Origin: Hydrolagus affinis
Taxonomy: Eukaryota
Reading direction: 5' to 3'
Assembly (NCBI GenBank): GCA_012026655.1
Contig: JAAILG010000585.1
Location: 1-64,000 of the forward strand
Length of the DNA: 64,000 nucleotides
In this document: piece by piece, positions 1,721-62,885 of the stretch
Layout of the letters: each line of letters starts with the position of its first letter
Numbering within the stretch: the stretch's first letter is position 1
Position numbers and translations under genes: made by a program
The notes under the pieces: model-generated
Database searches by the model: none
What the model saw: the letters and a program-made list of their open reading frames with translations, nothing else
Told to the model about the DNA's origin: nothing

Positions 1721-1897
1721 TCACAACTGCATCTTCCTTAGCATGTCCACTGACACCGGTGGGTGGAAGTTGATGGTATGATGACGAAGTCCATGGGCAG
1801 TTTTGTAGCTTTTTCCACAGCGGCACTTGAAAGGCTTTCGAACACGGGTTTGAGTGCGATGGCCATTCTTGGCGTGGTACTTGATGCCGTTCACATT
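1721..1897 (-). CDS. JAZF1: JAZF-like coding exon 5 (end of finger 2, finger 3, stop)
   Basis: NVNGIKYHAKNGHRTQTRVRKPFKCRCGKSYKTAHGLRHHTINFHPPVSVDMLRKMQL-TGA; acceptor cctattag|AAT. Confidence 0.95.
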   Translation of the reverse strand, partial: NVNGIKYHAKNGHRTQTRVRKPFKCRCGKSYKTAHGLRHHTINFHPPVSVDMLRKMQL

Positions 1898-4800
1898 CTA
1901 ATAGGAATAGAGAATGTTTAGAATTACCTCAGTGAAAGATCTCAAGTTATACGTCTCTAAAACTGAGATTTTTTTCAAATTGTATTGTGTAACCTTTCCG
2001 GGAGAAAAACAGCAATTAAGCGCTTGAACTTAGATACTGCTGTCGCATTAAAATGGAAGGTTATTACAATGCCATTAAGGAGCTGAAATTTTTGTACTAC
2101 CTTGCTTTTCACTGGAGATAATATGGGGTTGAATGATGTGGCTATTGTAATTTAGAACTTGGCATTTCAAACATCTGCTCATTTTACATTTTAAAAAGAT
2201 AGGCAAAGAGTGTGTATAGAGTCCAGAGACTTCTAGTAATTACAAGTTTACAACAAAAGGTATTTACGATTCTAGGACTATAAAGCTCTTCTATCATATC
2301 TACTTAATCAAAGTACAAACACTGATTAAGTAGAAGCGACCAGTACTGTGAATTTACTCAAGTATGCTTTAAAATAACCAAGTAGACTGAAAAAGAATTT
2401 AGTTGATCTAAGATAGAAACCTATTTTGATGGTGTCTGAAAGTTAATGTCAGTGTATACCTAAACCATTAAGGTTTAAAAATTCACAAGTGTAACATTTT
2501 CCCTTCTCATTTCAAAAGGCATGTTAATTTTTGAGACCTTACATCATCTTTCATCACTCAACACACATTGAAGCAATATTCACCTTGTTACATCATTTGT
2601 TAGAATCTAAACCATGAGTATGAATCTGCATTACTGCCTTAAAAGGTACTTTAACAGTAATTTTCAGACTTCATAACTAGATACACGATTGCATCTACTG
2701 CATTTATTTACATGGATAAATAATTTTCTGCATCACTTTTCCCAGGTATATTTTGCATTGAACATATTTAATGAGCAGTAACCCTGTCAACTCTACAACA
2801 CAGGGTTCTAATAGATTTAACTGCAATGGTGGGTGGGCTAAGCTTTACCCTGTAACTGTCATTAAATACTTGGAATTCAAGCACCCCTTAACAGTTATAC
2901 TGTCAAGGAACCAGACAAGATCAAGTTTCTCTGCTGTCCAATGAGGTGTTCCAATTAACAAATTGAAGAAAAATGGAAGCGGTTCTGATTTCCTTACTCC
3001 CGTACAAAACAATACATTTAGAAATGAAAAGCAATAAAGTTTAGTTTGAAAAAAGAACAAAATATCAATCAAGAATACCAATGAGTAAGATGTCCAAGTA
3101 AGAATGCTGAATTCAAATCACTGGATAAAATACAAAATTGTGGCATGGCAACATAGATTTTTTTCCATTAACTCGCTTAGATTAAGTTAATTGTTCAATT
3201 ACACTACATTCAGTTGGTCATATGAATTGGGAACAATCCAATAAAACCTATTTGAAGCTTCCGATGCCCACAAGGTTTAAAATCACTTTTAGGTTTTAAA
3301 CAAAAACCACAGTGTTCATTTGTGTTGCAACTAGTTATAGACACTATGCTCAAGTTCACATTCAGAATGGGTGAACCAGCATTTCTTAGACTGCATCATG
3401 CAAGAGATGTCCAGATTCCCATGCAACATCAAAGTACAAAGTGTATCACTATTTCAAATACCACAATATCGTGTTTATATATTTTTGACAAATTTTATAA
3501 GCTCATAAAGGTTATAAAATCTATAAAATTTGTACACAAAATATAGTACAAATACAGTTCAAAATATTCATTGACAGAGCATGCATTAACATGAGCATTA
3601 AACCTTTTTCACAGTACCAAATATGTTCAAACCATTGGTTACATAACAAAATTCAGACAAATACCAAGAAAAAGGGGATATGAAACTATTACAATATAGA
3701 AACAGCTGTCACCACTTAAAAGTTGAATAGCCAGTGGTTGTTAAGCAGAGGATGGCGTAGGGGGAGGAGAGTAGACAGAATAACTGTAAAACTTCGATCC
3801 AAGCACTAGGTAATTAAAATGGAAAATATATCTTGCTTAATTTCAGTGCTGCGTGTCGTTTTGTTTAAATGTTTATACTGATATGTTGTCGAAACACAGA
3901 GGTAATCTTTGCTCATGTAAAATATTAATTCAGCATTCAATCAAGATGAATTGGAATTAAAATTTGGAGAAATCAGCATTCAAAATAGTTAACCGTTTCC
4001 TACACGGTTAGACATCAAATAGATTTTCAAGTCTGCCTGTATTGACTCTAACTCAGTCAAAACTTGCCAGATTCCTAATGCAGAAAATCTGCTAAGTTAG
4101 TTAAATGTGAATCCGTACAACCATTTCCTTCTCAGTCACATAATAGCAGCTCATCAAAAGAGTGCAGGTTTGCCTTGCATTATCCCCTACAGAGGCTCTG
4201 GTCTATGCTTCCATCTATACCATTACCCTTTATTTGTTGTTCCCTCCATTCTACCAGGCATTCCAAAGACTATTAATCTGCCGAGTCTGCCTGCTCTTTC
4301 AATAATGATGTTTGAGCAATTCAGCTGGACGGCTCTTGTGCTTCAGACATGAAGCCAGAAAGATTCCAGAACAACACAGAATAGCTTTGTTATACTGGTA
4401 ATTAAGACAGGACTGACATTCAAACAAGACCAGGACAGGATGTGGCAAATTACTGTATTCTTTGTGTGAAAAGCTGCTCCCACTACGGTTTGTCTGGCCT
4501 CCGGGGAACTCATCATCTTCACTAACAGTCAGAATGGGATTTTGTACCCTCTATTCCCTCAACAAACTTCACTCTAATAAACATTTCTGATTCCTGGCAA
4601 TACTTGGGCGAGAACTTGCTAATTTGTAAAGTTGTGAAAAATGAAACCTCTGAGCTCAATTTCTATTGTGGGGCTCTGCAAATAGAAATATCACCTTTTG
4701 TTTAAATGCATTTTTATTGACATTTCCAAGGATAGCTTGTTCGCTGGACGCAACACATACCTTGTACCTCTTTTTACAGCCAGGTACAGGGCAAGCAAAT

Positions 4801-7800
4801 GGCTTCTCATCATCCCCGTTCAAGCACATTGAGCTTAGAATAGTCTCAGAGCTGATAGCACTTTCTGTTGTCCATGATTCGTCACTGTCGGAATCCTCAC
4901 ATTCAATTTCTTCTTCATCTAATTCGCTGCCTGGAAATCAGGAGAAAAAACAAGGGTAATAAAGTAGGCACATTGAAAAGGTTAAGATATATTTTTTAAA
5001 AAGGATCTATATTTAGATAAATTGCTTTAATCCAAGATTCTTGTCCGATTCTTTCCTTTGCCTCCCCTTTGAAGCCATTATAGATAAATGGCATTCAAGA
5101 CAACTCTCTACGCTCACAGCAAACACACTTGTGTTTTCAACTGCCAAAGGCATCCTGGGTAATTAGCCATTACAGTTCTGTCACAGAGAGTTCCACAGTC
5201 AATACAGAGATAATTTGGGCAATGGTGAATGACAGTGCTGTCCAGACTTTTGGGATGATCAAGGACACATCCAGCTGTACCAGACATCTGTCAGGGCCAT
5301 GAATCATTTCAACTAGCAGCACAGTAACCAAGCAGCTGAAGCAAGAACAAACATTCAACAAGCACCACACACAGAGGAAAGAGGAATCCACAGTGAAGTG
5401 CAAAGAAAAAAAGGTGAAATGTGGAAAAAAAAGGGCAAGCACCCACCCCAAAAAACCCCACCAATTTTCATAGAAAGCTGCAAAAATAGCTACTGTGTGA
5501 CAAAGTCAACAGGAAGTAAAAAATACCAAATGTAAAAAATGAAACCATCATCACATCTTCCGCCTAAAATAGTTTCAATCGATTAAAGAATTAATAACCA
5601 AATTATCTGGAAAATCACCATTCTAAAGAACGTGTTATACACATTTCATTAAACTTCAGCATTTGATATTTTTGGACTTTAGTTATGACCAGTAAAAAAA
5701 ATTACTGGCCACAACTGTAGTTTCTATTATGTAATTGCTAATTCATACAAGATGCAAGTACAAAAAAAAATCTAGTACATTAAAATCTAGTTATGTGTGG
5801 ATTGAAAAAGCATTGTTGCAAACAGTTTGCATCTAACTCCCAAATCCATGCAGAATAAGCTTCATTAATATCTTATTGGTGGCATGGTGTAGTAGAGTTA
5901 ATACTAGCCAAATATGGAACTGAATCATCATCTTGTTCAGTCACAGAACTGTGCAAAGTGTCTGCTAACATTCCTCTTAATTAAACAACACATAGGGGCT
6001 CTTCCAGTTTTGCATATTCTAATGGTAGAACATTGATACTCATTATTTTCAGGCTTCAAACGCTGAAATCGTGTCAAGAATGCATCCATCATAAGAAGGC
6101 AAATGATAGCAAAATTTTCAGCAGCATCAGCAAATTTTACATTTACAAATTTTATAAGTGACTTTTATTGGGGCAAGATCATTTTTAAACAAAATCATGA
6201 GTTTGATGCTTTGTTGCACCTCTTAGCAGCCTTACCTAATGACAGTAATTAACAATCTGCAATTAGTATCCACTTCAGAAGGCATTCAAATGTTAATTTG
6301 CCTTCACTAATGTGCTGCACAGCTGTGTAACAAGATGCATGAAACTGCAAGTCTGATCTTTTGGCTCAAATCTTGCCTGATAACATCAAGCACAGTGTAT
6401 AAAATAGAACTTTGTACCAATGCAAAGTTCTGGAAATAAACTCGATATCAAACACAGACGGGGATGCATAATTACTCTGTTATGTTCATTTGTACAACTA
6501 GTATCATTTACGTAAAACAGCTTTTACGAAACATAAATTAATTATGAACATGACTAGTTGCATTCAATTTATAAATCACACAATCTGCACAGCAGAAGTT
6601 ACACTCTTCAGAATATCTAATTTACTATAATTTTACAGTACCTCAAGTACAACTTTGCGTGCAAGCATTTGTGGCTGCAGCTCTCAGCATGGCGATCAGA
6701 TTACAGCCATATTAAACCTCTGTAGAGCAGCACCAGGTCACCCCCAGGGCTTCCATCTGCCCCACACAGTGCACCTCCCTCCTGAACACTTTAACACAAC
6801 TTTGTGTGGGACCAAAATGGACTGCTTTAAATTATCAGATTATGTCAAACATATTTATTAAACTGCTCCCTTCATGCTTTGACTGTTGTGATTAATCAAG
6901 GCAGGTATCGGTAATTTACTGAGCAATTAATATCTCATGTTAATCATCGCTTCCTTCAAAATGAGTTAGGAATTTGTTGCAATTTTTTGTGGAGAAGGAA
7001 AATAGTATGTATTTCGCTAATTTAAAAGTACGAGTTTAAATTTAATTGTTTTGCTCCAAAGAAGAAGCCTAAGCATGATCCAACTCGGTTTCATTTTTTT
7101 TAAAAAAAGGCACAATACAAATTAAAAGCTGTTGTAATAATTTTATAAAATCTTACATAAGAACATTTCCCATAAAGGGCAACATGATTGTTTCTTAGCA
7201 GTTATTCAATGCTGCAATTTTTGGAAATAGTTGGTTATTTCTAGGGATTAACTCTTAATAAAACATATAAAGGTGGTATGTATTCAATTAAAAATAGTAT
7301 AAACCGACATTCTTTTGTGGTGGTAAAACTCCATCTCCCCACACCCGATTACAAATAACTCGTGAATGTCAAAAACAGACTGGTAAAAGTGCAATTTATA
7401 TTGCTTACTTTTTGAAATACCATATAATGTCCTTTAAATTTAACACCATAAGTTTTTGAGTGTTGATATCTCTTTATATCAATAAGTCCTGTCAAATTCC
7501 TGATGCAAACAGGTAAGCAAAATAGGGATATGGCCCTTAACACATTTTATCATTTTTCTAATTCCTTCTGTTGTACTATTATATTTTGCTTCTCTATTTA
7601 ATTGTTAGTACCTTTGGCTTAGATTGTCTCAGTTTCTCACTCTTAGGCTGGCTTTCTAGTTCCAGGTTGGGTTTGTATACAATGAGCATAGCCAATCTAG
7701 TAATTCTAGGCAGGCAAAAGTTAAAGGTCACTTAATGACCAGATTTCTGCCAGCATGCTTCAGGCGCCGTTCATAGCAAGCCAGGGTAGTTATTCAGTTC

Positions 7801-10800
7801 AACTGACTTTTGTAACCAAAATAAAGTCACTAGTGTGCCATAATTTATGGCTACGTAGTGCTACACTGCTAGTAGAGTTCAGTCACATCGATTTAGTTTT
7901 GAGGGAATCAAAAAGAGTTTTGTAGTTTGCAGCTTTTAATCAATTTTCAATATTTCTTCTTCACTGCACTTAAATGGCAAATGTTAATCCCAGTGTAATA
8001 GATATTGTGCACATTTCAAACTCAATTTACACATTGTTCAAATATATTCACTGCCATTGTATTGAGAGCTTGCATAAATCTCAGGAGTAAAACAATAACC
8101 TAACACAAATTGCTAAAACCTGCAAGGTAATTACAGTTCAGTGAACTTTTCAATTTACAGAAGCTCGGAGCATTATTGTATAAAATATATACCGACCAGT
8201 TGGTGTACCACTGCAGGCAGAAGAGGATGGTGTAACTGGTGGGGTCCCGGGAAATGCTGAGCTTCCATTGCCAGGATGAGGTGATGCGGGTGTTCCCCCT
8301 CTTCCCACAGGGCTGGAAAGAGCTGGGATTAACTTGGCCTGATGCCTTTTTCTCATCTGCTCACGTTCACGCCGAGCAGCATCAGTCATAAACCTGTATT
8401 AGTTCCAGGAATGAACACCAAAGCAAAATCATAAGGGGAATTAAAATGGAATGGCTTATTGAGCCTGGAGACTAGGCTGAAAATTCCAAAATAGCTAGGT
8501 CCTACTTGTTGCTGGTCACTTTAAATATCAAAGCATTTAATGCATCTACAAATGGAGGTTAAACATGAAAGATCTTATAACAAGTCTGTGGGGGTGCTTC
8601 TCGTGTTACTGGTTAGCTCTGTGGGGACCACCACTTTCAAGGCAAGATGAAACAAAACAAGTTTGGAAAACCCTCATGAGCTATGTTCAAAGGCACTGAT
8701 AAGTTCTGACTGGATTAGCATTTATTGACTGTTCAAGATCGTTTTTCTTTCTTGCTGGACTACAGCTGCACTAAAGATAACTGGCTCACAAAACATAACT
8801 ACCAAAATTCAAACTGTAAATTTGCTCCATGCTTGATGCTTAACTGATGACTATTCAGTTTGTAATGACAAAGCAAATTAAATAATGTTCGGATCTTATG
8901 AAACAACTAGTTTGCTTTGAACTGAAGGTTAAGCTGCTAGATCCATGCACAAAAAACACTTATTAACGGTTTATGCTGAGATAGCGTTTTTGTATTGATT
9001 TTATGATACACAGGTATTATGATTTATGGAGTGGCCATGTCAGTTTAACAAGCTGAAGGACACACAATATCTTCAACATCATTAAAATTCAGAAGCCTCT
9101 GGAGCTAACTTGCTACACTGTCATGCACTATATTTGGACAGCAGAGGTCCTATGCTTATGGAATATCACAATTTTCTACAAAACTTATTTTTAAAAAAAT
9201 AGGTTTTGTTCTCAGTTTAAGAATGTACAACAGGGACAGAAACACCACTAGCAACTGGGAAGCTCCCTTTCCCTTACAAATAATCAAAATAATAATATAT
9301 AATTTAATAATAATTTTAATTTCCAAAATTCATCCTGAATTAATAAAGGGTCATTCAGTGATGCATCAGAGACATCTGTGGATTATCATGAGAAATAAAG
9401 ATACAATATCGTTCAACAGCACATTTAACTGGCAGCATTTCACTATCTGTACATACTTTATGGAATTATCAGCATTTTAACAATTACTTGGACTATTTAC
9501 TATTAGTGTGCAAAATATACACAAGTAGAATTTTGGAAATACATAGATTAAAAAGGTAACGATCCTAGTAACTAATGTCATTTTACAATTATGAAATAAT
9601 TAAAAATATAACTAATATTAGCTAGAAATAGCTGGAAGCCAAGATGGGCCTACTGTATAGTTATATTACTTCCTTCTCCCAATCAGATTTTCCTTCCAGA
9701 ATATTACTATGAACTATTTTCGGCCAATCACTTTCCAAAAACTGCTCCATAATGCAACAACACTGACCCACAAATAGTCACCAGGAGGCAGAATCTAAAA
9801 ATTATGCAAACCTATCACCACCTATTGTATTTTAGCCCTAACACCTTGCTATTGTGCGGGCTCCATCTAGTGGACCAGACAATCCTATGCATTTGAACAA
9901 AAATGACTTGTCAGAAGTCTCAAGTGAAGTTTCAGTTCACAAATACAGATTAGGAATACTACAGTGACATTTTTGCATCAAGTTTTGACAATTAACTCTG
10001 AATATTATTTCTATATTGAATTTTATTCAAACAGAATATTTCTTATAAAACTGTTTTAAGTTGAATCAATTATTTAACAAATAAAATTTGATTTCAACTC
10101 AGAAATTCCCAAGTTGAAGGCTTTGAATTCTTTAAGCAGAAATTGTTGCGAAACCTTTTCAAAAAGCATCTTTAGTTTAGGATATTCATTAAATAGATTT
10201 GGAACTCATAATCTGAAAAAGTTTTAGTAGTGTTTGCTAAATTATATTACACTTTAATTTGTTAATCAGAGATTTTACAAGAGCTAATGGTCTTCTGCAG
10301 TTTTATTGAAAAGGGGCCACAACAACATGTACTTCAATAGTTGGACAAATATCATCTATCTAGCATATGATGTTCTCTCTAAAGGTTTAGTAAGATTTAA
10401 AATTTTAAACAATTAGATCTATTTTTTGTAAACAAAATAGGCTCTACAGAAAACCCAGAAACGAAGAAATAGACAAGATTTTTAAATATATAAATTCAGA
10501 ACTTTTGAAATGGTCAGTGTCAAATCAAAAAGGTGACTTATGGTAACATTACCCAATTGGCAGCCATGACTGGGTTGAAAAGATTTAAAAAGGAAGAAAT
10601 GTTGCACATTTCCACTACTACCAGACAGCCTGCTACAATATTGGTATCTCCTGCCAACTAGCAGAATTGACCACAACATAAATGCCAAATTGTTCCTATG
10701 GAGTTTTGGCCAGTCTACTCATGTCTGAACACTAATTACGTGCATGCAAACCTCCATAAACCTTAATCCCATTGAGTATGTGCATACTCCTAAGGTCCAA

Positions 10801-13800
10801 CTGTGACTTGGCATAATTCAGCAGACAGCTGGAGACTGGGAAAATGATTGGTGCCAAACACTAGCTGTACTGGGTCTTACGACACATTTTATTTCTGCAA
10901 CTGGCAATAGCCAATTAAGACGGTCTCCTTCCTGCTACTATTGTTTCTCTAAATTGCAAATTCTATCCTTCTGAAAAAGGTGTAAAACATAAATTCCTAG
11001 TTAGTTTGTTAACTGACAAGCAAAATGATTATGAAAAAGCACACAAAAAATGTGGGAAAAAAAGTTAAGATTTTTTTCCCAAATAATAAGTGCTAATTTG
11101 AATCCACTGCTGCCCATTGTTCCAGAACTACAGCTATTTGCCAAAATATCAAATTAGCATTGTAAACATTGAAATCAGACATTTCAAAATTCAACCTATG
11201 GCCCAATTTTCCCTTTGATCTTAGCTTAATCTCAATTCATCAATAATGTACACTTATTATGGGATTTTGACAGCAAGCAACAGCTTTTGATAAATTATAC
11301 ATCTCAAGCTAGATTTAAAATTTGAAGCGCAAGTGCTAATTATCTATACAGGCCTAGTTAATAACGAGATTTCTTGTTGAGTATCCGATCACAGCATGGG
11401 TGTCATTTGTCAAGAATGTTCAAGTCTACCTTAGAGACCAGTTTCTGTAATTCTCCCATGCCTACCATATGTAAAATTGGGATCTTTGTTTCTATAATAA
11501 CCTTTTATTAGGAAACTGACATAATGATTAAGTTCACTGAAGACACATACAATGAATTAGGCGATTACCCTTGCTGCTTTAAGCTACTCAGGATCGTAGC
11601 AAGACAAAATAATTAATATTGAATTTTAATTTGATGTGTTCCACATTTAAACTCCAATTTGCAAAGTACACCTGGAAAGCTGCCACTGTTTAAGCTGATG
11701 AAAGAAAGGTTCCTGCAGTTTGAAGTACAAGAGCACAGAAGGCACAATGCACCATAACTGCTTCTCTATGGAGCAAAGAATATTCAAGCAATAATTGAGA
11801 AGGTAATTACTAAGCCCCAACTTTATTGTCTTGCCACAATATGCACACAGGTCTTCAAATTTTATTGCATCAGTGATCCTGCTTTGTTTCCCCCCCACCT
11901 CCCTCCCACACTCCACCTCTCATCCCAAAAATAAACTACACCAAAAAAAACAGCAACTTGTTTGTGACTATAATGAAATTCTCTGATCTATAATCTAATG
12001 TTAATGAGGAAATTGTTAAGATGATTAAATCATTATTTTATAATTATTAATCCAACATGCCTTTTCTTTATACTTAATTGAGATTTATGGATACACTAGT
12101 TGAAATCAATAACTTATAATCCAAATTCATCTTAAAACATTTTAAAAAAAAATTATACACAAACCGATCCAATAAAAAAGATTAACTGATAGTAACAATA
12201 ATCATAATTTAAAAGAGGAAGAAATACTACTTTGCAGGCTTCCTTAATAAACGGATAAGTACCAGCTTGCCATGCACAACCTTATACTGGCAGCCATTAT
12301 AGGGAAATGTTTTAAAAGATGTAAAATGATTCTTCTTTGAAAATTGACCATTATTAAAGTGGTTTAAATTAAATCAGTATACATATCAGTGTCAAATAGA
12401 GAGGTTAAGTAGTTCAGTGTATGGTGATACAAAATTCCATGCTACAGGTAAGATTTGGACTCTCAACTATATTTCTCAACATGGCCGTGGCAAGTGGGGC
12501 AAAAAGAAAAGATTCCCTTCCACAATTACAGTAAACTCTGGCTAACTCTTCACTCAAGGGAAAAGAGTTCAGTAACAAGTTATCTGGAGTGGCCAGTTGG
12601 ACACAAGTCATGGGGGGCACTTTCACTGTGTGTGTCTGTGTATGCTTGGTGGAAGTTGGGATGAATGCTCAGAAGCGTCATAGTCACCTCTGGTCTATTG
12701 GAGGATCTCTCGTCCTATCCAGACACAAGGTAGGGCAGCCAGCCTTCCAATAGATAAGAGGCCTCTGAGATGTATCATCGATGTTTACATGTATAATGCT
12801 CATCGAACCTCCTCCAAGTACCAACACCAGTTACAGGATAAGGCAAGAGATATCTTCAATGCAAGATATCTGATCAAATTTACACCTTAAGTACATCAAG
12901 ATTTCTCACAGATCACTTGCTTGATTCTCAGCTGAATTCACAAACTGATGTTCATAGGATTAAAGTGACTGCTCTTTGAAAATAAATTTTTCAATAGATA
13001 CTGGAATATATTCCTGTATTACAAAGGAGAGGCTTATTCTGCCACAATATACAGTCAATTAACTTTACAGTATTCTCTATGAAGTGCTTTTAAACTTGTT
13101 TCAAAATTGTGCTGACTTATTATTATTATAATATGTCTGCTGGACCCAATAGCTTGGAGAATGGGTTTTAAGCAAAACTCTTCAGATGCTGTCATTGTTT
13201 GCTGTGTGTCAGATCATCGATTGCTGTATATGTCCATTATGAAGTGATGTCAGCATTGCTTGCTGAGCAATAAGTGTGCATGTGCCATAAGTCATTTTGA
13301 CCATTTCTTAAGTATAGGAAGCCAGTCAGTTAGCACCAGAAGCTGGGTGTATCACACTTAAGCGACAAAAGCCCTATATAGTACCAGGGAAGAACGAGAG
13401 GGCATTATAACAGGTTTCTACTTTGAAGATCCACCTTCATTTACTTTCTTTAACCTATTTAGTCTCCCAAGCATGGCATAACAAAGTACACATTGGTTCT
13501 ACTTTTAGTATTTTCAAAAGGTTTCTCAATAGTTTCCATTTCTAAAGTATTTCCCTGTGGCCACATACACTTGAAAAATTCGGATTTATGATAAAATCTG
13601 AAATTTATACCTGTTGATATAACTTAATGCGATATATGATGGCTGCTGCTGTTCTTGCCTTTCCAAAACCTTGGGATCACTTTCTGTCAAAAGAACATAC
13701 CACAAAACAATTAATTCATTAACTAGAATGTTTTTGTTGATACCAAGTAGCTCATAATTATAATATGCCAATTTCAAGATTAGAATTGATTTATCAGAGA

Positions 13801-25800: not shown

Positions 25801-28800
25801 CTGGCAAACTTTAATACAGTATACTACTGGCAAACGTTAATATTTGGTAGTGTGACAGTGGCAGTGGCACTTGCAGCTTCCCCACTCATCTTGATGTTGT
25901 GGAGCCCATAGCATCTTTTAAACCACCCTCTGCTAGCAATGAAAGATGGTGCAGTTGAGCCTTCTCCTTCCTGATCATTTAACTCCCAAAACAATGATTT
26001 TGCCTTCTCTTGGATAACCAGGGTGTTGAGTGGTATATTACACTAGTTCTGATCCTCAATCCAGACACTCAGCATTCTTTCCATGTTTTCCATCACATCA
26101 TTCCTATCTTTTGCTAATCCGCTTGCACCTGTAACTGTAACACACCTTGAACTTGCCAGTATATTATCCTTATTCTGTTTTATAATAGCCACCGTTGATC
26201 TAGCTAGCCCTAAAGCCCTCCCGACGTCCGTACCTTTTTCACCAGAATCGATGCGCTTTATCATCTCTAATTTGGTATTTAAAGTGATGACTTTGCGGGG
26301 TTTCTGGCTGGTAGCGGTATTACCACTGCTCATTTCACTTAGTATAAACTTGCTATAAACACATTAGAGGCTGTAAATCGCTCGAAGATGCTCGGGAATG
26401 TTTGGAAATTACTGTAATACTGACGTGGTGCGGTGTCGCTTCAAAATCAGATGGCTTTTAAACAATGACTTGGCGACATGCTATTGGCCTGTTCAAACGC
26501 TTGAATATCAGGTGCGAGTGCGATTTACACTATGGACTGTGCGTATGGACAAGTATGGAATGCTTTACTGGTAAGTATTCATACAATATTCTGTTATTAT
26601 TTAGTCTATTATTAATATGATACATTTTAAAATAAGTTAATTTTTTGTGTAGGATTATCAGCAACTTGCCGCTCGAATATCCGGCATATTTAATTAACCA
26701 GCAAAGGTCAGGTCCTGAGGGTGCCGGTTAACAAAGCTTTTACTGTATTTATTAATTCACCAACAAAGTATAATCGAAACAATGCACAGTAAAAGCCCAT
26801 TTATCCGTGACCTGATCAACTGTAACTTCCGTATAACCGGCACCTCAAAAAAAAGGTCCACATTCGATTAACTGGAATTTATCCAGCACAATCCATTTTT
26901 TAAAAACTTTTTTTGTGTTTTCAGTCAAATATCCGGCACGTGCTGTTACCAGCATTGGCCAGGTCCTGAGGGTGCCAGATAAACAGGCTTTTACTGTATA
27001 TTGGGACAACAAATAGAGTTAATGACCAATTTTTATTGAGTTTTTTTGGACAGATTATTATTAACAGGAATAATGACAATAATCCACTAGTTTCCTTACA
27101 TGCATTGTTCATTATACAGAATACAGGCTTTACATAATTCCTTCTCACATAGCTTCCTATCCCTGCTCCGTTCCAAATTGCATCATGTACACGATGACAA
27201 GAGCCGAGGGTTGTATGCACTGGGGTACTACTAGTGTTTCACCACCTGAAACCACATAACTTACCATTGAACGTGCTGTCTGGCATGCTGCACACTTGTC
27301 CAGATTCAACCATCCAACCCATTCAGACTTTGAAAGATTCCCCACCCCCAGTCTGCCACTCCAAGTCTGCCAATGAACCAGGCTAGCTGGTATGTTATCC
27401 GCAGTACCCTGGTGCACTAGTTCAGGAATCAGACTATCTAGACCACCACAGAGTGTTGACTCTACATCTTGTTGGCAAGCTCCAAAGGGACCCTACTTAC
27501 CTTCCGCACAAGGAATGCACTATTCCCAAACCATACTGCAATGGATAAAGCAAAAAAAAATTATACATACCAGTGATACACAAAAACAATAGATGGTTTT
27601 TACACATACCTGGACACACTAGGCACATTGTCAAAATGTGNNNNNNNNNNNNNNNNNNNNNNNNNNNNNNNNNNNNNNNNNNNNNNNNNNNNNNNNNNNN
27701 NNNNNNNNNNNNNNNNNNNNNNNNNNNNNNNNNNNNNNNNTTGATATAGCGCTTTCCACATCTTGTCAACGTCCCAAAGCGCTTCACAGAATATACTGTA
27801 AAGTGAATTGACTGTATATATTTGTGGGCGAATCGCGGCAGCCAATTGCGCACAGCAGTGTCCCACACACAGTCGTGGATTGAAATGACCAATTTTATTA
27901 TTGTTTTTTTTTTGGGAGGGAGGGATTATTATTAGGCATGTGGAGTAAGGAAACTTGCCCAAGGTTTCGCCCTGACCTGCCTGGATTCGAACACAGGTCT
28001 CCCCAGCTTGGTCTCCCCAGCTTGCAAGACAAGTGCTCTAACCACTGAGCCACAGGAGCTCCAATTTAGCCAATTTGGAGTGTAGCCAATTTAGTACATT
28101 ACTGTATAAGATTAAAATTTTGTAAAGCCATTCTGAATAGGCCACATGCAGTGTACATGCTGCAGGCAGCAAATTCAATTGCTCCAGTCTGCCTGCTAAT
28201 TTGGAGTAATATACATCATGCAAAGCAATTTTCCAAAACCACTTTGTTACATTTCTGATGTGGTGCTTTATTTCAACAATACAGTATATCACAATTGTAA
28301 AAAAAATTCTCTTCATTTCCCACATGGAGTTTTTTTTTGTTAAAACAAAAAACTTCCTACAGTTGTTCCTAAAGTGAACTGAACATTAATTAAAAAGATG
28401 CAAATAGATGCAAACAACTGTATTCAAACCAAGACAATTGTCAATGGGCTCCATCTGCTGGTAATAAAAATAGCTTCTAAAAATTCCAGGAGTAATCCTA
28501 CTGGTAGCATTAGGAATAGGTCCAGCACACAGATTGAAGCTAGAATTATTAAGATGACCTTATACTTACTTGCAAATGGCTAGCATGCTTAAAAGACTTT
28601 CTGTGCACACATTCTAAACCACTTCTGTTTAAACTCTGCCAAGCATTTACTTTTGTAATGGAATATTTTATGACTCATTTGGAACTGTAGCTCATTCAGA
28701 AGGCTGCTGCTGTGCAATATGCAGTTAACAAGGTAGTGGCATGAGGAGAGAAAGCTCATTTGGACTTCTCTTCACTATATATTTTGGCAGCTGCTGCACA

Positions 28801-34470: not shown

Positions 34471-35060
34471 CCTGTAAACACATCCCTCACCCTGTATACA
34501 CACTCCTCCTCACCCTGTATACACACACCTCCATCTCCCCCTCCTCACCCTGTATACACACACCTTCATCTCCCCCTCCTCACCCTGCATACACACACCT
34601 TCATCTTCTCCTCACCCTGTATACACACACCTCCTCCTCACCCTGTATACACACACCTCCATCTCCCCCTCCTCACCCTGTATACACACACCTCCATCTC
34701 CCCCTCCTCACCCTGTATACACACTCCTCCATCTCCTCCACCTCACCCTATATAGGCTCTAGAAGCGCTCTGAGACGCCATCCGGCGTGGAGGGCGCTAT
34801 ATAAATCAAAGTCGTTGTATACACATCCCTCCACCTCCTCCTCACCCTGCAAACAAACTCCTCCTCATCACCCTGTAAACACACTCTTCCACCTCCTCAT
34901 TCTGTAAACCACAATCCTCCACCTCCTCACTCTCCAAACACAATCCTCCACCTCCTCCTCATCACCCTGAAAACACACTCCTCTATCACCTCATCATCAT
35001 CACCCTGTAAACACACTGTCATCTCCTCCTCCTTACTTCACAGTCACCCCCTCTTAAATT
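34470..35060. repeat. C-rich minisatellite (unit ~CCTCCTCACCCTGTATACACACACCTCCATCTCC), degenerating rightward
   Basis: More than ten visible CTCACCCTGTA(T/A)ACACAC cores with variable spacers. Confidence 0.9.
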
Positions 35061-38000
35061 GCCATATGCCCCCTCACCCCCATCCCTCCTCACCCTCATT
35101 ACAGACTGTCACCTCCTCCCCACTGAATGTCACCTGCTCACTCTCACCCCCACCCCCCCACAATCCCAACCCCATGAAAGTACTCCTCATTCTCGACTGC
35201 CAACTCCTCAGTCTGAATATTATCTGGGCATTCCAGGTAAGCACTTCACCGACTACCTGCATTGCAAAGGTATTCAGCATACAACTATTTGTCTAAGGCC
35301 CTCATATGAAGACCTGAATTAAGCAGCTGGTGGCATTAGATTTCGACGTAAAGAACATCAAGATGTTGGATGTTGCAAGCTGTCTTTTAAAGGTCCCCCC
35401 ACCACGCCGAAGCTAGATGTCTTCCAGATAGGTGATGAGGAAACTCTGAGGCTTCCAGCGACAGCTCCTGCAAAGCGTTACCTTATGCCGAGTTCTTATA
35501 TTCTGCACCCAGAATCTACCTTGATTGTCTTCTGGAGAGGTAAGCAACTGCTGGTCAAACTTTGAACCTCCAACTGGTGGAACCATCGCTCAGTGGAAAG
35601 GGACATGTGCCCAATCTACAGGAAGATGCTGGTAATGTTCTCACACGTTGAATCCTGATCTGTGTTGCCCACCAGGAAGCTTGAATGGAGCTCCTGGTAC
35701 CCACAAATCACCAAGTAAGAGCTCCAACTAGATGTCAAACGACTAACTAGTGACTATACTCGAGGGGGGATGGGGGGGTAAGCCACGTCTCCATGGAGAC
35801 AAGGAATTTCGGAATCCAGCCAGCAATCTTTACCAATCTTCGGTAGGCAGTGTTGCAGGCCAAGTACTTCAAGGCATTGCCGATGATAGCACAGCCAGCC
35901 TGACTCATCGGCAGGACGTGAAAGGGCAGACCAGTTTCTGAGGAAAGGAATCTTCTTGTTCAGTGAAAAATTTCTATATATATTTCATCAGTTATTTGGC
36001 CTCATTCCGTCATTGCCTCACCTCTCAGGTTGCCGAACCACTCATACACACATTCATCACCTCAAAGGCTCGATGGAAATTACCCTAACTCATCCAGCCA
36101 CAAGCTCCAGATCATCCAGAACTCATGTTCTCTCCTGCACCAGGCCCCGTGACCCCATCACCTTTGTCGGGCTCCACTGGCCGGGCATTCCAGTTCCTTC
36201 AATAAGGTTCCTGTTCTTATATATTGAAATATAGTTGTGTCTTTTTTAAAAAACTCTTGAGTTGCCTATATACAAATAGCAATCTAAATGCATTCTGGTC
36301 ATATCACAATGATATTTTAAAAAGAGCTGTGGGGTTGGGTCTAAATAAAACATGTACAGTATTTATCTTTCTCCGCATAAACAGAAATCAAGACATTCTA
36401 CTCCTTGAGCTATGGCAGTACTAGGCCCATTTGACCACGAGGAACTACACAAGAGAACTATGGGGTAAATACCTTTTCTTCCCTTCACCATCTCCTTCTT
36501 TTGGATTTGCTTAGCCACCTACATCAGCACAACAGATACCAAGAACTCAGCAGATTAGGGGGTCAAATGTTGATTTCACCGTTCTGGTGTGCTATGTGTT
36601 GGTATTCCAGTATTGTATGTAGCAATGACATATCAGAAAATGAGTTGGAAACCTGAATGTCAATTCTCAACTAAATTATTTCCCAATAACTTATCAGTGA
36701 AGATGGTATGAACATTAAATCTTTGTTAAATTTTTGTCTTCTCTATTTCTGAAATATTAGGAAGAATGATTTGGGAGAGGAAGTTTACTGTTTGGGGTCT
36801 ATTGTTCTAGAATGATGAGTGTCATGATATAAATGCAATTAGTATTCATCCATGTGAATGAAGGATGAAATGAGAGATGTGAACTGGTTGCAGGAAGTGC
36901 AACTGAGTCCCAGTGCTACTGCAGGTGTGGCAGCTAGATGGCCAGTTCTGTAAACGGTGTTGGCAATCTTTTGACAAATCTTGTAACTTTTTTGTGTGAT
37001 AAATTGTGAGATTAACAGAATATGAAACATGATTTTAGTCAATCAAAATACTTTTATTGATCAAATACATTTAATTTTTTCATCAGTATGAAATTACTCT
37101 TGTGCTCTCAGGTCATACAGTGCCTGGAATTGAGGGTCCACCAAGTCCTGCCAATGAGCCAGACTGGCTGATTTGTCAGTATGATTTTAATAGAACAATT
37201 GCAATCTTGTGCTGCATTTGTTAAAAATCCAACAATGTTTTCATTTATTGCTTCATTGGTCACCGAGACCCTGCATTGATACTTGGTATGACACAAGGAT
37301 CACACAAAGGTTACAATTTAAGTTTTAATAGGTTTTGTTTTATGTACAAAGCATTGCCTGAAACAGAAGCAGTTTCTAATAGTGCAATCTTGCATTTTTC
37401 CACTTTGAAGCTTTGAGGCTGCTTTATTTCATAGGGGCTTTCCTGATCATACTTTGCAATGTGAACTTCGTTATTGAACAGATTAGCATTTATCACAGTA
37501 AAATTATGAATTACATTTGCAGTAAATCCCACAATTATTTGTGTTGGAAAAAAATACATTTCATTATTGTTACAATCAATCCTAAAAAAACTAATGTGTA
37601 ATTTATTTTCATTTTGGCCTTCAGGGTGAAAAAATAAAAGTTGTTGTGGCTTTTGTATTAACTTCAAATACCTGGCGATGGTAGTCAGAAATTAAAATAC
37701 TTTTGGTATAATTAAATTAGTTAATTAAAACCAAACTAGTGTTAAAACTCCTTGCTTCAAAACCTTTTACATTTGCTTCATTTTAGTTACTTCCCTGTAA
37801 GCAGAACTAGTAAGCTATTTGAAACAATAAGGTCTCCAAAACAATGGCATACGGTTCCTACAATGGACCTGAATAAAAGCACATCTGGAAAGATTTATTT
37901 CAACTAAGGTTGGCAAGAACATCCAACAATATTGTTTCCATACAGAGTATAACCAGGAAGCTTAATTCAACTAGGGTAAAATGCAGGTTTCATTTATATC

Positions 38001-38379
38001 AACTTTCCAGATATCCATTCAATAACTACATTACATTTTCCGCCAAACCAATCCCTCCCCTTGATGCATGTCCTCTCCCCACAGTAGTCTACTCATTGAA
38101 AAACAGCTTAGTTTCAAAAATAAATCCCTTCCATGGGTTCCATTTACATGATTGTACATTCATGGCAAATTACTGTATTGACTTTCAGCTGCAGGAAGTT
38201 ATTATAGCTCACCCAGGACTTGATGTCAAATTAGGCAGTCAGTCAGCAACAGTACTGGAATCGAGGTAATAGTAGAATCAAGTACCAGTAAAATATACAG
38301 TAGTCTAATTTACACAACAGATTGGGGGGGAAAACAAAGTCCACGAATCACAAAGAGACCAAATAAAACATGTTGAGGG

Positions 38380-39000
38380 ATGTGAAAGCCAATGGCTGAG
38401 AGCAACGCATGCGCACTGGTGCCAGAGTTTGGATATACGGGGAGAGGGAGGGGGCCTGGGAGCGGCACCACGTGATATGATGACGCGAGCGACTGCACGA
38501 CGGAGAGTGGGGAGGGCTGGGACCAGCGGCGCGTGACGTCATGACGCAGAACGAGAGCGCGCGGAGGTGAGGGGCCTGAGACTACGTGACGTCATTACGT
38601 AAAAGGAGAGCGAGTGAGGGAAGAGAAGAGGCGCGGAGCCCGGCGAGATCTCGCGAGTTGTGGCCAGGATCCCGTGCGATTGGCCCTCAGTGAGAAGTCG
38701 CCCTGGTGGTAAGTTTGTAAACAACGTTAAAGGGCAGAGAGCCGCGGCCTCCGGGGAGGCGAGGGGAGAGGGAGTGTTTGTGTATGATAATGATAGCCAG
38801 CGGCCGGTATCAAAACATCTGCACCGAACCGAGCAGCAAGCAGAGGGCCCGGAGGTGGGTGTGTTCGCCGACGTTTACATGTTAATATGGCGACGCTCGG
38901 TTGTTGTGGTGGTTAACTCGGTGCCGCCGACAGCTGCACTGCAAAGGATGTCTGTACCGTCCGCCCCCCACTTCGTGCCTCTGATGAAAACGGCGGAGGT
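38380..39000 (+). promoter_or_regulatory. ATF2: ATF2 CpG-island promoter
   Basis: CCAAT 38389-38393, NRF1-like ACGCATGCGCA 38405-38415, CACGTG 38469-38474, full CREs TGACGTCA 38534-38541 and 38587-38594, TTACGTAA 38595-38602, TCTCGCGAG 38649-38657, YY1-like AATATGGCG 38884-38892. Confidence 0.85.
38610..38708 (+). other. ATF2: ATF2 non-coding exon 1 (start approximate)
   Basis: Consensus donor GTG|GTAAGT at 38709 just downstream of the CRE cluster; TSS position inferred. Confidence 0.6.
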
Positions 39001-39181
39001 TTGACTGACAAGGCAGACCTGTTTTCAAGAGGGTGTATGTGTGTGTGATCGCGGTGCTATCACGTTACAAACACAGACAGGTACATCTGTTTGTATGGGA
39101 TGAGCGGCCTAAATGAGCGAGAAGCTGGCCTGTGCCCCGTTTCCGAGGCAGCAGCAGACTGTGAGCATCTCACTCCTGGTG

Positions 39182-39350
39182 CAATTTGACTGTTTGTGGG
39201 ACGTTGCTGAGCGCAATTGGCTGCCGCGTTTCGCCCACATAATAATATACAGTCACTACAGTTTATACTGTAGTCTGTGAAGCGCTTTGAGACGTCTCCG
39301 AGATGTGATGAGGGGCCATATCAAATGCAAGGTTTATTGTTCTTATTATT
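39182..39350 (+). mobile_element. SINE 3' part, same family, in ATF2 intron 1
   Basis: GTGGGACGTTGCTGAGCGCAATTGGCTGCCGCGTTTCGCCCAC...ATCAAATGCAAGG. Confidence 0.75.
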
Positions 39351-43456: not shown

Positions 43457-43504
43457 ATGAGTGATGATAGACCCTTTGTATGCACCGCTCCTGGATGTGG
43501 CCAG
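43457..43504 (+). CDS. ATF2: ATF2 first coding exon (exon starts 43435, ATG 43457)
   Basis: MSDDRPFVCTAPGCGQ; acceptor aatacag|GTG, donor CAG|GTAGTT. Confidence 0.93.
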
Positions 43505-61500: not shown

Positions 61501-62885
61501 TGACAATAATAAGCAAACTCAAATGCCACATTTGGCTGGGATTGACCACAAATATAACATTATGCATACTATAACAATAGAGGACTTGCCATGATGTGAA
61601 TTCAACTGTAATAACTTCCTGAAGAACAAACTGAGCATACCATTTGTACCATTTGCATCTTCTATTCAAATCAAACTGATACAACTTGGATTACAGGTTA
61701 AATTGCTGCTTTTTTTTTTCCAGAGACTGAAGGCAGCTTTGACACAACAGCTTCCTCAGATTACCAATGGTAACGGTACCATTTCTCAAACGAGTGGTAT
61801 AGAGAGAACCCAACCAGAGGAAACACATCCACAATCCTTGCAGCAGGCTGCAACCTCCACAACTCAACCAGTGGTAAGTGAACAGTTGTTCCCTTGTTCA
61901 GTACATTTATTGGGATGAAAAATGCGATGTGATGTGAGAATTCTTGCCAGTGATGACACATCTCAGGTTTCATTCCCATAAATGTCTCGATCGATATCTG
62001 GCTAGGATGAACTCTAGACTTTGTCAAAATGGTTAGATCTCAAATTCAGTGATCTCTAATCTCTCGTGTCTTTCTCACTTCTACTGCTGTTGGTGTTGTG
62101 CAGAGATGACACATAGGAAATGATTTCCAACATTTTCTGTTCTTAGATTTGAGTCATTTCTTATTGTTGATATTTCTATCGCTCGCTAATGTATCAATAT
62201 GTTCAGTGGGATTAGTTGGAATAACAGATTCATTGCTTGTATGATGTGATATCATAATTGGCCCCATTTACATGCCAACTGCAAATAATTATTTATTGTG
62301 AAAATATTTATGGGTTTACTGCACTATTAAGTTAATTCTGGATTAAAAATACAAGCTATAGTTTAAAACTGACTGACTCTCAATTTCTTTCCAATTTCTT
62401 TTCAGAGCTTTTAAAGTTGAATTGAGTTGCTATCCCTGGAACCAGCACTGAAATGCCACGATCTGCTAACTTCAATGTTGGCAACAGGCCTAATAGTTCT
62501 CACTAAGCTGAACAAATCTTGGTTCCATGAAAAAAAAATGGAATTGAACTGAGATGTACAGTGCTTTAAAAAATATATATATATATATTTATTCATAGAG
62601 GTTTAAGGTTAAAACTTTATTTTTAGATGCATGAGGTTTTGTCTGAGGAATGGTGATTGAGTGCTGGTTTAATTGCAGGGCTCCCCAGCCCAGCCAACAC
62701 TGCAGAACCAGAGCGCTGGGGGCAGGCGGAGGCGGGCAACGAACGAAGACCCAGATGAGAAAAGGCGGAAGTTTTTAGAGCGTAACCGAGCAGCTGCATC
62801 AAGGTGCAGACAGAAGAGGAAAGTCTGGGTGCAATCTCTAGAAAAGAAGGCAGAAGATCTTTGTTCAACAAATGTACACCTGCAG
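43457..62885 (+). CDS. ATF2: Cyclic AMP-dependent transcription factor ATF-2, partial CDS join(43457..43504,44185..44281,45361..45479,45972..46100,48457..48632,50532..50646,51508..51615,61724..61873,62679..62885), continuing beyond the window
   Basis: Nine exons (1149 nt, 383 codons) splice in frame: N-terminal C2H2 finger (CTAPGCGQRFTNEDHLAVHKHKH), MAPK sites DQTPTPTR, ATF2-type ASEDDIKKMPLD, ETTHQNSPLPHPESTT and bZIP basic region DPDEKRRKFLERNRAAASRCRQKRKVWVQSLEKKAEDL. Confidence 0.96.
44185..44281 (+). CDS. ATF2: ATF2 coding exon (zinc finger / MAPK docking)
   Basis: RFTNEDHLAVHKHKHEMTLKFGPARNDSVIVA; ttccag| ... G|GTTAGT. Confidence 0.95.
44350..44975 (-). mobile_element. L2-clade LINE 3' fragment
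   Basis: ETLIHAFITCRLHYANTLLVGLPNSSFHRLQIIQNSA...LHWLPITQRIQFKILVLKFKALH, typical L2 ORF2 C-terminus, plus 3' tail. Confidence 0.85.
45361..45479 (+). CDS. ATF2: ATF2 coding exon (TPTP phospho-sites)
   Basis: DQTPTPTRFLKNCEEVGLFNELASPFEHEFKKASEDDIKK; ctttgtag| ... AAG|GTGTGT. Confidence 0.95.
45972..46100 (+). CDS. ATF2: ATF2 coding exon
   Basis: MPLDMSPLALPPIRAKVEETATVETTHQNSPLPHPESTTNDEK; ttcacag| ... AAG|GTCTCA (weak donor). Confidence 0.9.
46748..46900 (-). mobile_element. CR1 LINE 3' tail
   Basis: Reverse complement of the same tail type (ACATAGGAACAAGAGTAGCCATTC...AGATCATGGCTGATCTG). Confidence 0.65.
48457..48632 (+). CDS. ATF2: ATF2 coding exon
   Basis: DASLQQTAQSTSTIRSASLQVPNLLLANSEASVVIQHTLPSPTSTSVITQVPSTNRNI(V); atacag| ... 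GT|GTAAGT. Confidence 0.92.
48705..49110 (+). mobile_element. Deu-domain-type tRNA SINE (SacSINE1-like); sister copies at ~45560-45947 (+) and ~33030-33376 (-)
   Basis: CCTGGCTCAGTTGATAGGACTCTTGCCTCCAGAGTCAGAAAGTTGTGAGTTCAA head; GCTGACAC...GGGAGCACTGCATTGTTGGA core; family name from memory. Confidence 0.65.
50532..50646 (+). CDS. ATF2: ATF2 coding exon
   Basis: PVTGSVPLLLQLPNGQTMPVTIPASLSNPSVRILTIVP; ttttcag| ... CCA|GTAAGT. Confidence 0.92.
51508..51615 (+). CDS. ATF2: ATF2 coding exon
   Basis: IVRPVTMVPNVPGIPGPPLNNTEPLSPQPLQSEAKL; tactcag| ... CTG|GTAAAG. Confidence 0.92.
52955..53072 (+). mobile_element. SINE tail fragment, same family
   Basis: CCCACAAAATATAAAGTCAATTCATTTTACAG...GGATTATT. 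Confidence 0.65.
59010..59145 (-). mobile_element. SINE tail fragment, same family
   Basis: Reverse complement of the family 3' half. Confidence 0.7.
60366..60676 (+). mobile_element. tRNA-derived SINE, full length, same family
   Basis: GGAGTCCTGTAGTTCAGTGGTTAGA...GGTTCAATTCC head; body ACAGTCAATTCACTTTACAG; (ATT)n tail. Confidence 0.85.
61724..61873 (+). CDS. ATF2: ATF2 coding exon
   Basis: RLKAALTQQLPQITNGNGTISQTSGIERTQPEETHPQSLQQAATSTTQPV; poly-T ccag| ... GTG|GTAAGT. Confidence 0.93.
62679..62885 (+). CDS. ATF2: ATF2 coding exon (bZIP basic region, start of zipper)
   Basis: GSPAQPTLQNQSAGGRRRRATNEDPDEKRRKFLERNRAAASRCRQKRKVWVQSLEKKAEDLCSTNVHLQ; ttgcag| ... CAG|GTAAGT. Confidence 0.96.

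Follow-up and report, generated by a model that had tools for sequence, protein, structure and literature searches.

Gene content of the locus

The window analysed, the first 64,000 nucleotides of Hydrolagus affinis contig JAAILG010000585.1 (C585), carries a JAZF-family gene, here called JAZF2, and the bZIP gene ATF2 in divergent orientation (Table 1). JAZF2 runs on the minus strand from 34065 to 1721 and comprises five exons (732 nt) encoding 243 amino acids plus a stop codon. The reading frame has no internal stop, all four introns have GT-AG boundaries and the gene spans 32.3 kb, in agreement with the original prediction of an intact, compact (~32 kb) and fully open JAZF gene; that it is made as a protein is predicted with near certainty.

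Table 1. Features of the JAZF2-ATF2 locus (positions in the window unless marked as contig positions).
Feature	Position	Strand	Basis
JAZF2 coding exon 5 (finger 2 end, finger 3, stop)	1721..1897	-	exon model
Non-coding element, JAZF2 intron 4 (~200 bp)	4272..4479	-	also in JAZF1 intron 4, C4378:2923-3136, same orientation
JAZF2 exon 4 (acidic stretch, finger 2 start)	4761..4930	-	exon model
JAZF2 exon 3 (TR4-interacting segment end; paralogue-specific Ser/Pro/Gly linker)	8197..8393	-	exon model and JAZF alignment
JAZF2 exon 2 (TR4-interacting segment, first half)	13611..13683	-	exon model and JAZF alignment
100-N scaffold gap in JAZF2 intron 1	27641..27740	.	sole gap in window
JAZF2 coding exon 1 (start codon, first C2H2 finger)	33951..34065	-	38/38 identical to P0133
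CpG island at JAZF2 5' end, putative promoter	33751..34750	.	GC 0.58-0.64, CpG o/e 0.73-0.92
Possible penultimate ATP5MC exon remnant (weak)	36873..36990	+	12/500 shuffles reach score, rank 4 of 308 bins
Decayed ATP5MC (ATP synthase subunit c) last coding exon	37346..37464	+	ATP5MC3 position and strand; frameshifted, acceptor AG lost
CpG island, putative ATF2 promoter	38251..39250	+	two CRE palindromes at 38534, 38587
ATF2 coding exons 1-9	43457-43504, 44185-44281, 45361-45479, 45972-46100, 48457-48632, 50532-50646, 51508-51615, 61724-61873, 62679-62885	+	483/496 identical to C. milii ATF2 P0222
ATF2 last two exons, beyond window	contig 65502-65607, 68638-68873	+	exon model

The complete ATF2 model has 11 coding exons, nine of them in the window, and encodes 496 amino acids, with GT-AG boundaries at every intron. 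Its product is 97% identical to C. milii ATF2 by comparison with about 50% for CREB5 proteins (236-258/496); the proteins nearest to it carry the ATF2 name in five species, and human ATF2 bZIP chains were its sole PDB matches (27/27 and 37/42 residues identical). The ATF2-diagnostic segments named earlier are present at 44254, 46041, 46059, 62754 and 62820; the ASEDD segment is split by the intron separating the exon that ends at 45479 from the one that starts at 45972, and so did not appear as a single match. The bZIP gene is therefore ATF2, as predicted, and not CREB5, which lies elsewhere in the genome (C1426). We also considered whether the locus could be the HoxC copy (ATP5MC2-ATF7) rather than the HoxD copy, given that ATF7 also follows an ATP5MC gene in Xenopus and turtle (PMC9976460 supplement) and that a bZIP-exon search (2 matches/6 candidates) found no ATF7 in this genome. 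The ATF2 names of the nearest proteins, the identities to the human ATF2 chains and the location of skate Jazf1-2 on the HoxD chromosome (PMC10115646) make this highly improbable.

No N occurs between JAZF2 exon 1 and the end of the contig, so that exon 1 and ATF2 share one gap-free stretch and their divergent arrangement is independent of the gap in intron 1. A scaffolding artefact at that gap, or a misread JAZF1-CREB5 locus (the JAZF, bZIP, TRIL-like order is also that of the HoxA locus), can be practically discounted: a single C. milii protein accounts for exon 1 and exons 2-5 alike (242/243), the bZIP gene has the ATF2 and CREB5 identities given above, and JAZF1, CREB5 and TRIL lie on separate contigs. 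The possibility that unrelated contigs were joined at 27641 is ruled out, as the exons on both sides belong to the same paralogue.

The start codons of JAZF2 and ATF2 are 9.4 kb apart and the two CpG islands are separate, about 4 kb from each other; one short bidirectional promoter shared by the pair was therefore rejected. The CRE palindromes in the putative ATF2 promoter are the sole two in the 92-kb contig. Of the head-to-head pairing originally proposed, divergent orientation stands but direct adjacency does not, the genes being separated by a decayed ATP5MC exon.

A decayed ATP5MC exon between JAZF2 and ATF2

At the DNA level this remnant scored highest among 612 windows with either intact paralogue, and its score was reached by 0/300 shuffles, and by 0/500 in a second run; a protein-level search was weaker (rank 3 of 308 bins, 1/300 shuffles). 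The remnant carries four indels, with 16-17 of 71-72 non-degenerate sites changed, and has a T-rich tract upstream with no spliced upstream exon abutting it. By these sequence features and its syntenic place it classifies as an unprocessed ATP5MC pseudogene exon. The weak match upstream, a possible penultimate exon, was not significant in other runs (235/300 and 64/300 shuffles), and no intact ATP5MC was found in C585. Contig C3313 was examined as a left neighbour bearing ATP5MC3 and rejected; with a CALCOCO-type finger upstream and a GC3 of 0.84 it is likely a HoxB or HoxC copy.

In hagfish the order is ATF2-1, ATP5MC2, JAZF1, EVX1-1 (PMC10972751 supplement), and the order JAZF2-ATP5MC remnant-ATF2 matches the hagfish JAZF-ATP5MC-ATF arrangement. 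The original head-to-head neighbour of JAZF was thus likely ATP5MC and not ATF2, going by this gene order.

A separate JAZF1 locus in the same genome

As the original prediction had proposed to check, the genome was searched for separate JAZF1 and CREB5 loci, and both are present on other contigs. The JAZF1-type locus is distributed over C34578, C14393 and C4378. Four of its exons were located, with introns placed as in JAZF2; no exon 3 was recovered from this genome. Exon 1 of JAZF2 agrees at 79% with JAZF1 exon 1 (C34578), and over 176 codons the two genes differ by a dN of 0.098 and a dS of about 2.4, near saturation. A TAX1BP1-type double finger converges on the JAZF1 locus. By its diagnostic sites, its ATF2 neighbour and the TAX1BP1-type neighbour at the other locus, JAZF2 is not a JAZF1 orthologue.

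A second TRIL-type gene follows ATF2 on C585, on the opposite strand, and is 36% identical to canonical TRIL, which lies with a Peptidase_S10 (CPVL-type) exon on C1750. CHN1 exons were sought to the right of ATF2 and none was found in 69/90 C585 frames, the others overlapping the TRIL-like frame or low-complexity DNA. In this assembly C585 is too short to reach HoxD and has no link to LNPK or CHN1; JAZF1, CREB5 and TRIL/CPVL-type lie on three separate unjoined contigs, and a comparison of contig ends showed no overlaps. The TAX1BP1-type/JAZF1, CREB5 and TRIL/CPVL-type neighbours are joined on the C. milii HoxA scaffold (PMC9976460 supplement). Paralogous neighbours are thus collinear at both loci, JAZF-ATP5MC remnant-ATF2-TRIL-like at one and TAX1BP1-type/JAZF1, CREB5, TRIL/CPVL-type at the other.

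JAZF2 is an intron-containing copy and not a retrocopy, sharing with JAZF1 both its intron positions and a non-coding element in intron 4. The two copies of this element are identical at 155/204 positions (E 2e-13), with a score of 85, whereas 100 shuffles gave no more than 39 and an antisense control 26; the JAZF1 copy matched only itself in a genome search. Rfam returned only Pinc for the JAZF1 copy (22.6 bits, below the gathering score of 60), which was taken as chance. The element is a candidate duplicated regulatory element.

The JAZF2 protein and its predicted function

JAZF2 is 242/243 identical to a C. milii (Callorhinchus) protein (XP_007888225.1/AGO04264.1) and 231-235/243 identical to 'JAZF1-like' proteins of sharks and rays, by comparison with 187-188/243 at best for JAZF1 proteins (about 77% to tetrapod JAZF1). 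The chondrichthyan 'JAZF1-like' proteins (29-member cluster of P0004; presumably also skate Jazf1-2) are the same gene, with ATF2 as neighbour by accession order, and differ in name only; databases do not mark them as a separate ohnologue. Pfam identified PF17017 and PF00096 in P0133, and all 33 aligned diagnostic sites of P0133, itself among the sequences that define these sites, are in the non-JAZF1 state.

With JAZF1 (TIP27; a TIP60/NuA4 subunit and TR4 corepressor) JAZF2 shares its length of 243 residues, its intron positions and, by comparison with mammalian JAZF1, all Cys/His ligand positions of the three C2H2 fingers; it differs in being a 32-kb gene at the ATF2 locus and at 33 fixed residues, of which 15 fall within the linker. 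Fingers 2-3 are identical at 62/65 positions and the TR4-interacting segment (residues 51-75) at 21/25, including 12/14 TR4 contact residues, the changes T54S and V56I being conservative. In contrast, the linker (residues 76-128) is only 26/53 identical to that of mammalian JAZF1 but 52/53 identical to that of catshark JAZF2. This conservation between holocephalan and shark exceeds that seen for the JAZF1 linker when shark and mammal are compared (43/53), which points to selection at the protein level.

JAZF2 is predicted to share both roles of JAZF1, that of a subunit in the TIP60/NuA4 chromatin complex and that of a TR4/TR2 corepressor; its three fingers and acidic stretch differ hardly at all from those of JAZF1. 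On the model of the JAZF1 crystal structure, residues 51-75 would grip the TR4 AF-2 helix and keep coactivators out; binding to TR4/TR2 is predicted with good confidence, and joining of TIP60/NuA4 is probable, slightly less firmly so. The distinct, frozen linker would supply partners or modification sites of its own.

Species distribution and probable linkage to HoxD

Seventeen of the 206 proteins scored were of JAZF2 type, all chondrichthyan, the homologue sets comprising the best 120 of 184 and the best 120 of 424 matches. Going by these 206 proteins, JAZF2 was apparently lost in bony vertebrates. Retention of a second JAZF gene in this lineage was correctly predicted, but it is not special to it, being common to sharks and rays.

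Linkage of the contig to HoxD, and of JAZF1 to CREB5, is supported by tables for other species and by accession order. In C. milii, Hypanus and Mobula the RefSeq accessions of ATF2 and JAZF1-like follow each other directly or almost directly, and in Chiloscyllium jazf1b adjoins CREB5 by the same measure. In a skate table (Leri_7C; PMC10115646 supplement), Hoxd4 lies at 21.73, Hoxd12 at 21.78, Lnpk at 21.82, Jazf1-2 at 22.33-22.38 and Chn1 at 22.65 Mb. This supports a second Jazf gene between Lnpk and Chn1 beside HoxD, presumed from its position to be JAZF2.

The gene is largely known, being annotated in sharks, and Acemel et al. 2016 reportedly treats Jazf2 and elephant shark. The name jazf2 is also already in print, for a mouse pseudogene reported in the Atp5g3/Atf2 region near HoxD, together with the label 'jazf1/2' (PMC9976460). 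That jazf2 has the same name and place as the gene described here, but is a pseudogene in mouse, whereas here JAZF2 is intact and ATP5MC decayed. Where the original prediction had no JAZF gene at the mammalian ATF2 locus, mammals reportedly retain a remnant.

Origin of JAZF2

We consider JAZF2 to be the HoxD-side copy from the first genome doubling, kept by cartilaginous fishes and with a predicted JAZF1-like function (probability about 0.9); ohnologue origin as such is very probable. An ancestral block Evx-(CALCOCO/TAX1BP1)-JAZF-ATP5MC-ATF-TRIL-(CPVL)-CHN would have been doubled, the HoxA copy keeping JAZF1, CREB5 and TRIL. The HoxD copy here would have kept JAZF2, ATF2 and the TRIL-like gene while ATP5MC3 decayed, and bony vertebrates would have done the reverse.

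In a tree built without six aberrant or chimeric rows (P0163, P0171, P0173, P0175, P0177, P0180), from a set with no invertebrate, lamprey or coelacanth JAZF, JAZF2 falls in a 12-row chondrichthyan clade (100/100) and the second locus groups with C. milii JAZF1 (95/85). The tree does not fix the date of the duplication: AU tests (18 rows) accommodate both JAZF1 monophyly (p 0.386) and a chondrichthyan-specific duplication (p 0.147), rejecting neither. The date is taken from synteny, which points to the first vertebrate doubling (1R). The original prediction of a 2R ohnologue holds for a whole-genome-duplication paralogue at ATF2/HoxD, but as the HoxA and HoxD regions are reported to have split at 1R (PMC10972751), '1R ohnologue' is more exact.

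Alternatively, JAZF1 may have been duplicated in the chondrichthyan stem, landed beside ATF2 and diverged fast. The exclusively chondrichthyan JAZF2-type proteins, the AU result for a clade of JAZF2 and shark JAZF1 and the long stem branch (about 0.4) are all compatible with this. However, the copy would have had to land at the paralogous spot of the hagfish JAZF-ATP5MC-ATF order, with a TRIL paralogue on its other side; of 34 diagnostic sites, hagfish JAZF agrees with JAZF1 at 19-20 and with JAZF2 at five; and the mouse pseudogene is reported from the Atp5g3/Atf2 region. We regard such a duplication as very unlikely.

A further proposal, compatible with ohnologue origin, is that JAZF2 was kept mainly as host of long-range HoxD enhancers, its protein being redundant with JAZF1. 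Mouse Jazf1 houses strong limb enhancers of HoxA (PMC3873244), the intron-4 element is common to both paralogues, and one table row links the skate Jazf1-2 bait to 21.80-21.81 Mb, the HoxD 5' end (PMC10115646). Enhancers have no need of an open frame, however, and the linker conservation points to selection on the protein, so that we consider this unlikely as the main reason.

Implications

It is conceivable, if doubtful, that the block is a near-intact relic of the ancestral 5' Hox neighbourhood with reciprocal losses, and that the intron-4 element is a pre-1R Hox long-range enhancer. On that reading one ancestral enhancer would be common to the 5' landscapes of HoxA and HoxD, contrary to the view that the two had independent origins (PMC3873244), and in mammals the HoxD gene desert would end in an eroded JAZF2 gene. 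JAZF2 preserves in living form a gene of which mammals reportedly retain just a pseudogene, on the margin of the HoxD limb-control region, and the history of this region can be traced from the intact locus.

The locus represents no new kind of system. Vertebrate ohnologues kept only in cartilaginous fishes are a recognised class, and JAZF2 resembles these in its differential loss after doubling and chondrichthyan retention; it differs in that retention of JAZF2 and the TRIL-like gene and reciprocal loss of ATP5MC all fall within 77 kb. The ATP5MC remnant and TRIL-like gene likely illustrate, on a small scale, how cartilaginous and bony vertebrates each lost genes that the other kept. Slow gene loss has been noted for this class (PMC10115646).

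JAZF2 keeps the fingers and TR4 segment of JAZF1 but has a distinct, frozen linker, and so shows which parts of the protein tolerate change. JAZF1 is relevant in type 2 diabetes and endometrial stromal sarcoma, and the linker belongs to the N-terminal half that is incorporated in JAZF1-SUZ12 fusions.

JAZF2 and ATF2 gene models

The contig carrying the window (JAAILG010000585.1) is 92,345 bases long, of which the window covers positions 1-64000. JAZF2 exons were placed by tblastn with database proteins and splice-site checks, giving a 732 nt coding sequence for 243 amino acids with GT-AG introns throughout. The protein is identical to Callorhinchus milii XP_007888225.1/AGO04264.1 at 242/243 residues and to shark and ray 'JAZF1-like' proteins at 231-235/243; the best identity to JAZF1 proteins was 187-188/243. 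The plus-strand neighbour is ATF2 as originally predicted, with 483 of 496 residues identical to C. milii ATF2 and 431-436 to ray ATF2, versus 236-258 for four CREB5 proteins. We considered whether the single gap in the window, inside JAZF2 intron 1, was a misjoin; because exon 1 matches the C. milii protein at every residue (100%) and the JAZF1 exon 1 elsewhere in this genome at 79%, the right pieces have been joined.

Features of the JAZF2-ATF2 region (L006 and L008 are stretches of contigs C585, which carries the window, and C4378)
Feature	Location	Strand	Basis or remark
JAZF2 coding exon 1	window 34065-33951	minus	tblastn, splice sites
JAZF2 coding exon 2	window 13683-13611	minus	tblastn, splice sites
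JAZF2 coding exon 3	window 8393-8197	minus	tblastn, splice sites
JAZF2 coding exon 4	window 4930-4761	minus	tblastn, splice sites
JAZF2 coding exon 5	window 1897-1721	minus	tblastn, splice sites
ATF2, 11 coding exons, 496 aa		plus	full-length protein comparison
Decayed ATP5MC last exon	window 37346-37464	as ATF2	similarity to both intact paralogues
Non-coding element, 208 bp	window 4272-4479 (JAZF2 intron 4); L008:2923-3136 (JAZF1 intron 4)
TRIL-like LRR-FN3 gene, single exon, intact	G000:C585:76518-74320 (L006)	minus, opposite to ATF2	732 aa from first Met

At 34470-35180, directly behind the JAZF2 CpG island, is a tandem repeat of low complexity whose plus strand is rich in C and A. Within the ATF2 CpG island, the stretch 38460-38610 contains two CRE palindromes, two more CRE-like half sites and one E-box, which suggest ATF2 autoregulation. 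A CpG-rich repeated element, alike at 190-420 and 40190-40490 and present again near 18850, creates false CpG peaks.

A separate JAZF1 locus

The original prediction of an intact second JAZF beside ATF2 was correct in outline, as separate JAZF1 and CREB5 genes were located, the latter on contig C1426. Genome searches returned exactly one other JAZF gene, split over contigs C34578, C14393 and C4378, with its exon 3 not found in these searches. It is JAZF1-type (95-100% identical per exon to shark JAZF1), and a TAX1BP1-type double zinc finger (PF18112; 137 frames scanned) converges on its 3' end. Intron positions match between the two genes, which differ by a dN of 0.098 and a dS of ~2.4 over 176 codons. 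Their intron-4 element is identical at 155/204 positions (0/100 shuffles) and has stops in all frames; in Rfam, the JAZF1 copy matches Pinc weakly, with a score below the threshold.

A decayed ATP5MC exon between JAZF2 and ATF2

The hagfish gene order in the supplement of PMC10972751 is ATF2-1, ATP5MC2, JAZF1, EVX1-1, with two uncharacterised rows interleaved and strands not given; after this order pointed there, the interval between JAZF2 and ATF2 was searched for ATP5MC. When 612 windows were compared with each of the two intact paralogues, a decayed last exon ranked first both times (scores 66 and 77.5 versus next-best 42.5 and 38.5); shuffle controls gave 0/300 and 0/500. It carries four indels and ~23% change at non-degenerate sites, versus 1/73 between the intact copies. 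A remnant of the penultimate exon is only suggested by a weak match (12/500 shuffles; 235/300 and 64/300 under other scorings). Two intact ATP5MC last exons were found in this fragmented assembly, from which a third could be missing; mammals have three ATP5MC genes. Given the remnant, the head-to-head arrangement is likely secondary: the genes are divergent as first described, but the original direct pairing proposed for them probably does not stand. On contig C3313 (5764-45836), a CALCOCO-type finger exon precedes, by 40 kb and in the same orientation, an intact ATP5MC; this is probably the block's HoxB or HoxC counterpart.

A TRIL-like gene beyond ATF2

Past ATF2, 10 kb outside the window, lies a TRIL-like gene whose two nearest Atlas clusters are both named TRIL (score 0.98). 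The genome has one full-length relative of it, TRIL on contig C1750 (36% identical), which adjoins a CPVL-type exon; a supplementary row of PMC9976460 groups CHN2, CREB5, TAX1BP1, CPVL, TRIL and JAZF1 on the C. milii HoxA scaffold. Besides JAZF2, the TRIL-like gene is probably another ohnologue kept in the JAZF2-ATF2 block. At the contig end, a GC-rich promoter-like stretch with a short ATG frame (L007:7860-8070, contig ~91860-92070) might represent the 5' end of a following gene, expected to be CHN1.

Distribution and dating

JAZF2 is already annotated and named. Database entries for the protein exist from many sharks and rays, labelled with JAZF1-like names. Acemel 2016 reportedly treats Jazf2. 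For mouse, PMC9976460, citing Montavon 2011, gives 'atp5g3, atf2, and the jazf2 pseudogene' and also 'jazf1/2'. Our literature search returned no description of an intact JAZF2, and nothing on it in the accessible parts of PMC3897358, PMC12198301 and PMC10506793. The ATP5MC remnant, TRIL-like gene and common intron-4 element add modestly to this, and we do not claim that the first two are unpublished.

RefSeq number order is indirect evidence for adjacency of ATF2 and JAZF-like genes in C. milii (XP_007888219-224 and 225-227), Hypanus (XP_059822683-686 and 690) and Mobula (XP_062908197-198 and 201), and of CREB5 and jazf1b in Chiloscyllium (XP_043545461-466 and 470). In skate, Jazf1-2 occupies 22.33-22.38 Mb of Leri_7C, with Lnpk on one side at 21.82 Mb and Chn1 on the other at 22.65 Mb; the Hoxd genes are at 21.73-21.79 Mb, and Tax1bp1-1 is on Leri_2C (PMC10115646 supplement). 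Scoring of 206 JAZF proteins at 34 sites diagnostic for the two types classed 17 as JAZF2-type, all chondrichthyan; 10 of these 17 had been used in partly defining the sites. Judged from these proteins, taken from the best 120 of 184 and best 120 of 424 hits, JAZF2 was likely lost in all bony vertebrates. In rajid skate JAZF2 (P0128, P0129), Cys replaces Pro before finger 3; P0128 has a further record from Logan assemblies, a hint that a spliced transcript exists.

A 36-row tree placed JAZF2 inside a chondrichthyan clade (support 100/100, stem ~0.4) and paired the second locus with C. milii JAZF1 (95/85), with hagfish weakly attached among JAZF1 rows. In AU tests on 18 rows, monophyly of JAZF1 (p 0.386) and a grouping of JAZF2 with shark JAZF1 (p 0.147) were both left unrejected, and dating therefore depends on synteny. 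According to PMC10972751, Evx1-HoxA and Evx2-HoxD separated at 1R and cyclostomes have no C/D-side Evx; since the hagfish JAZF adjoins Evx, it would then belong to the JAZF1 side, in agreement with its JAZF1 state at 19-20 diagnostic sites and JAZF2 state at 5 (scored on Myxine and E. burgeri proteins as proxies for the E. atami gene).

Predicted function of JAZF2

The p400/TIP60 complex and MBTD1 are found in purifications together with JAZF1 (PMC7826843), and residues 51-75 of JAZF1 keep the TR4 AF-2 helix in its repressed state via 14 named residues (PMC9943680; PDB 7XVA). JAZF2 retains 12 of the 14, the changes being T54S and V56I; further changes in this segment are M65L in sharks and D67E in rays. 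Fingers 2-3 are identical at 62/65 positions between JAZF2 and JAZF1. The JAZF2 linker (76-128) matches mammalian JAZF1 at 26/53 positions and catshark JAZF2 at 52/53, as expected of a segment that diverged early and then came under strong constraint. Judged by these residues, JAZF2 would share the core activities of JAZF1 and present a different regulatory surface.
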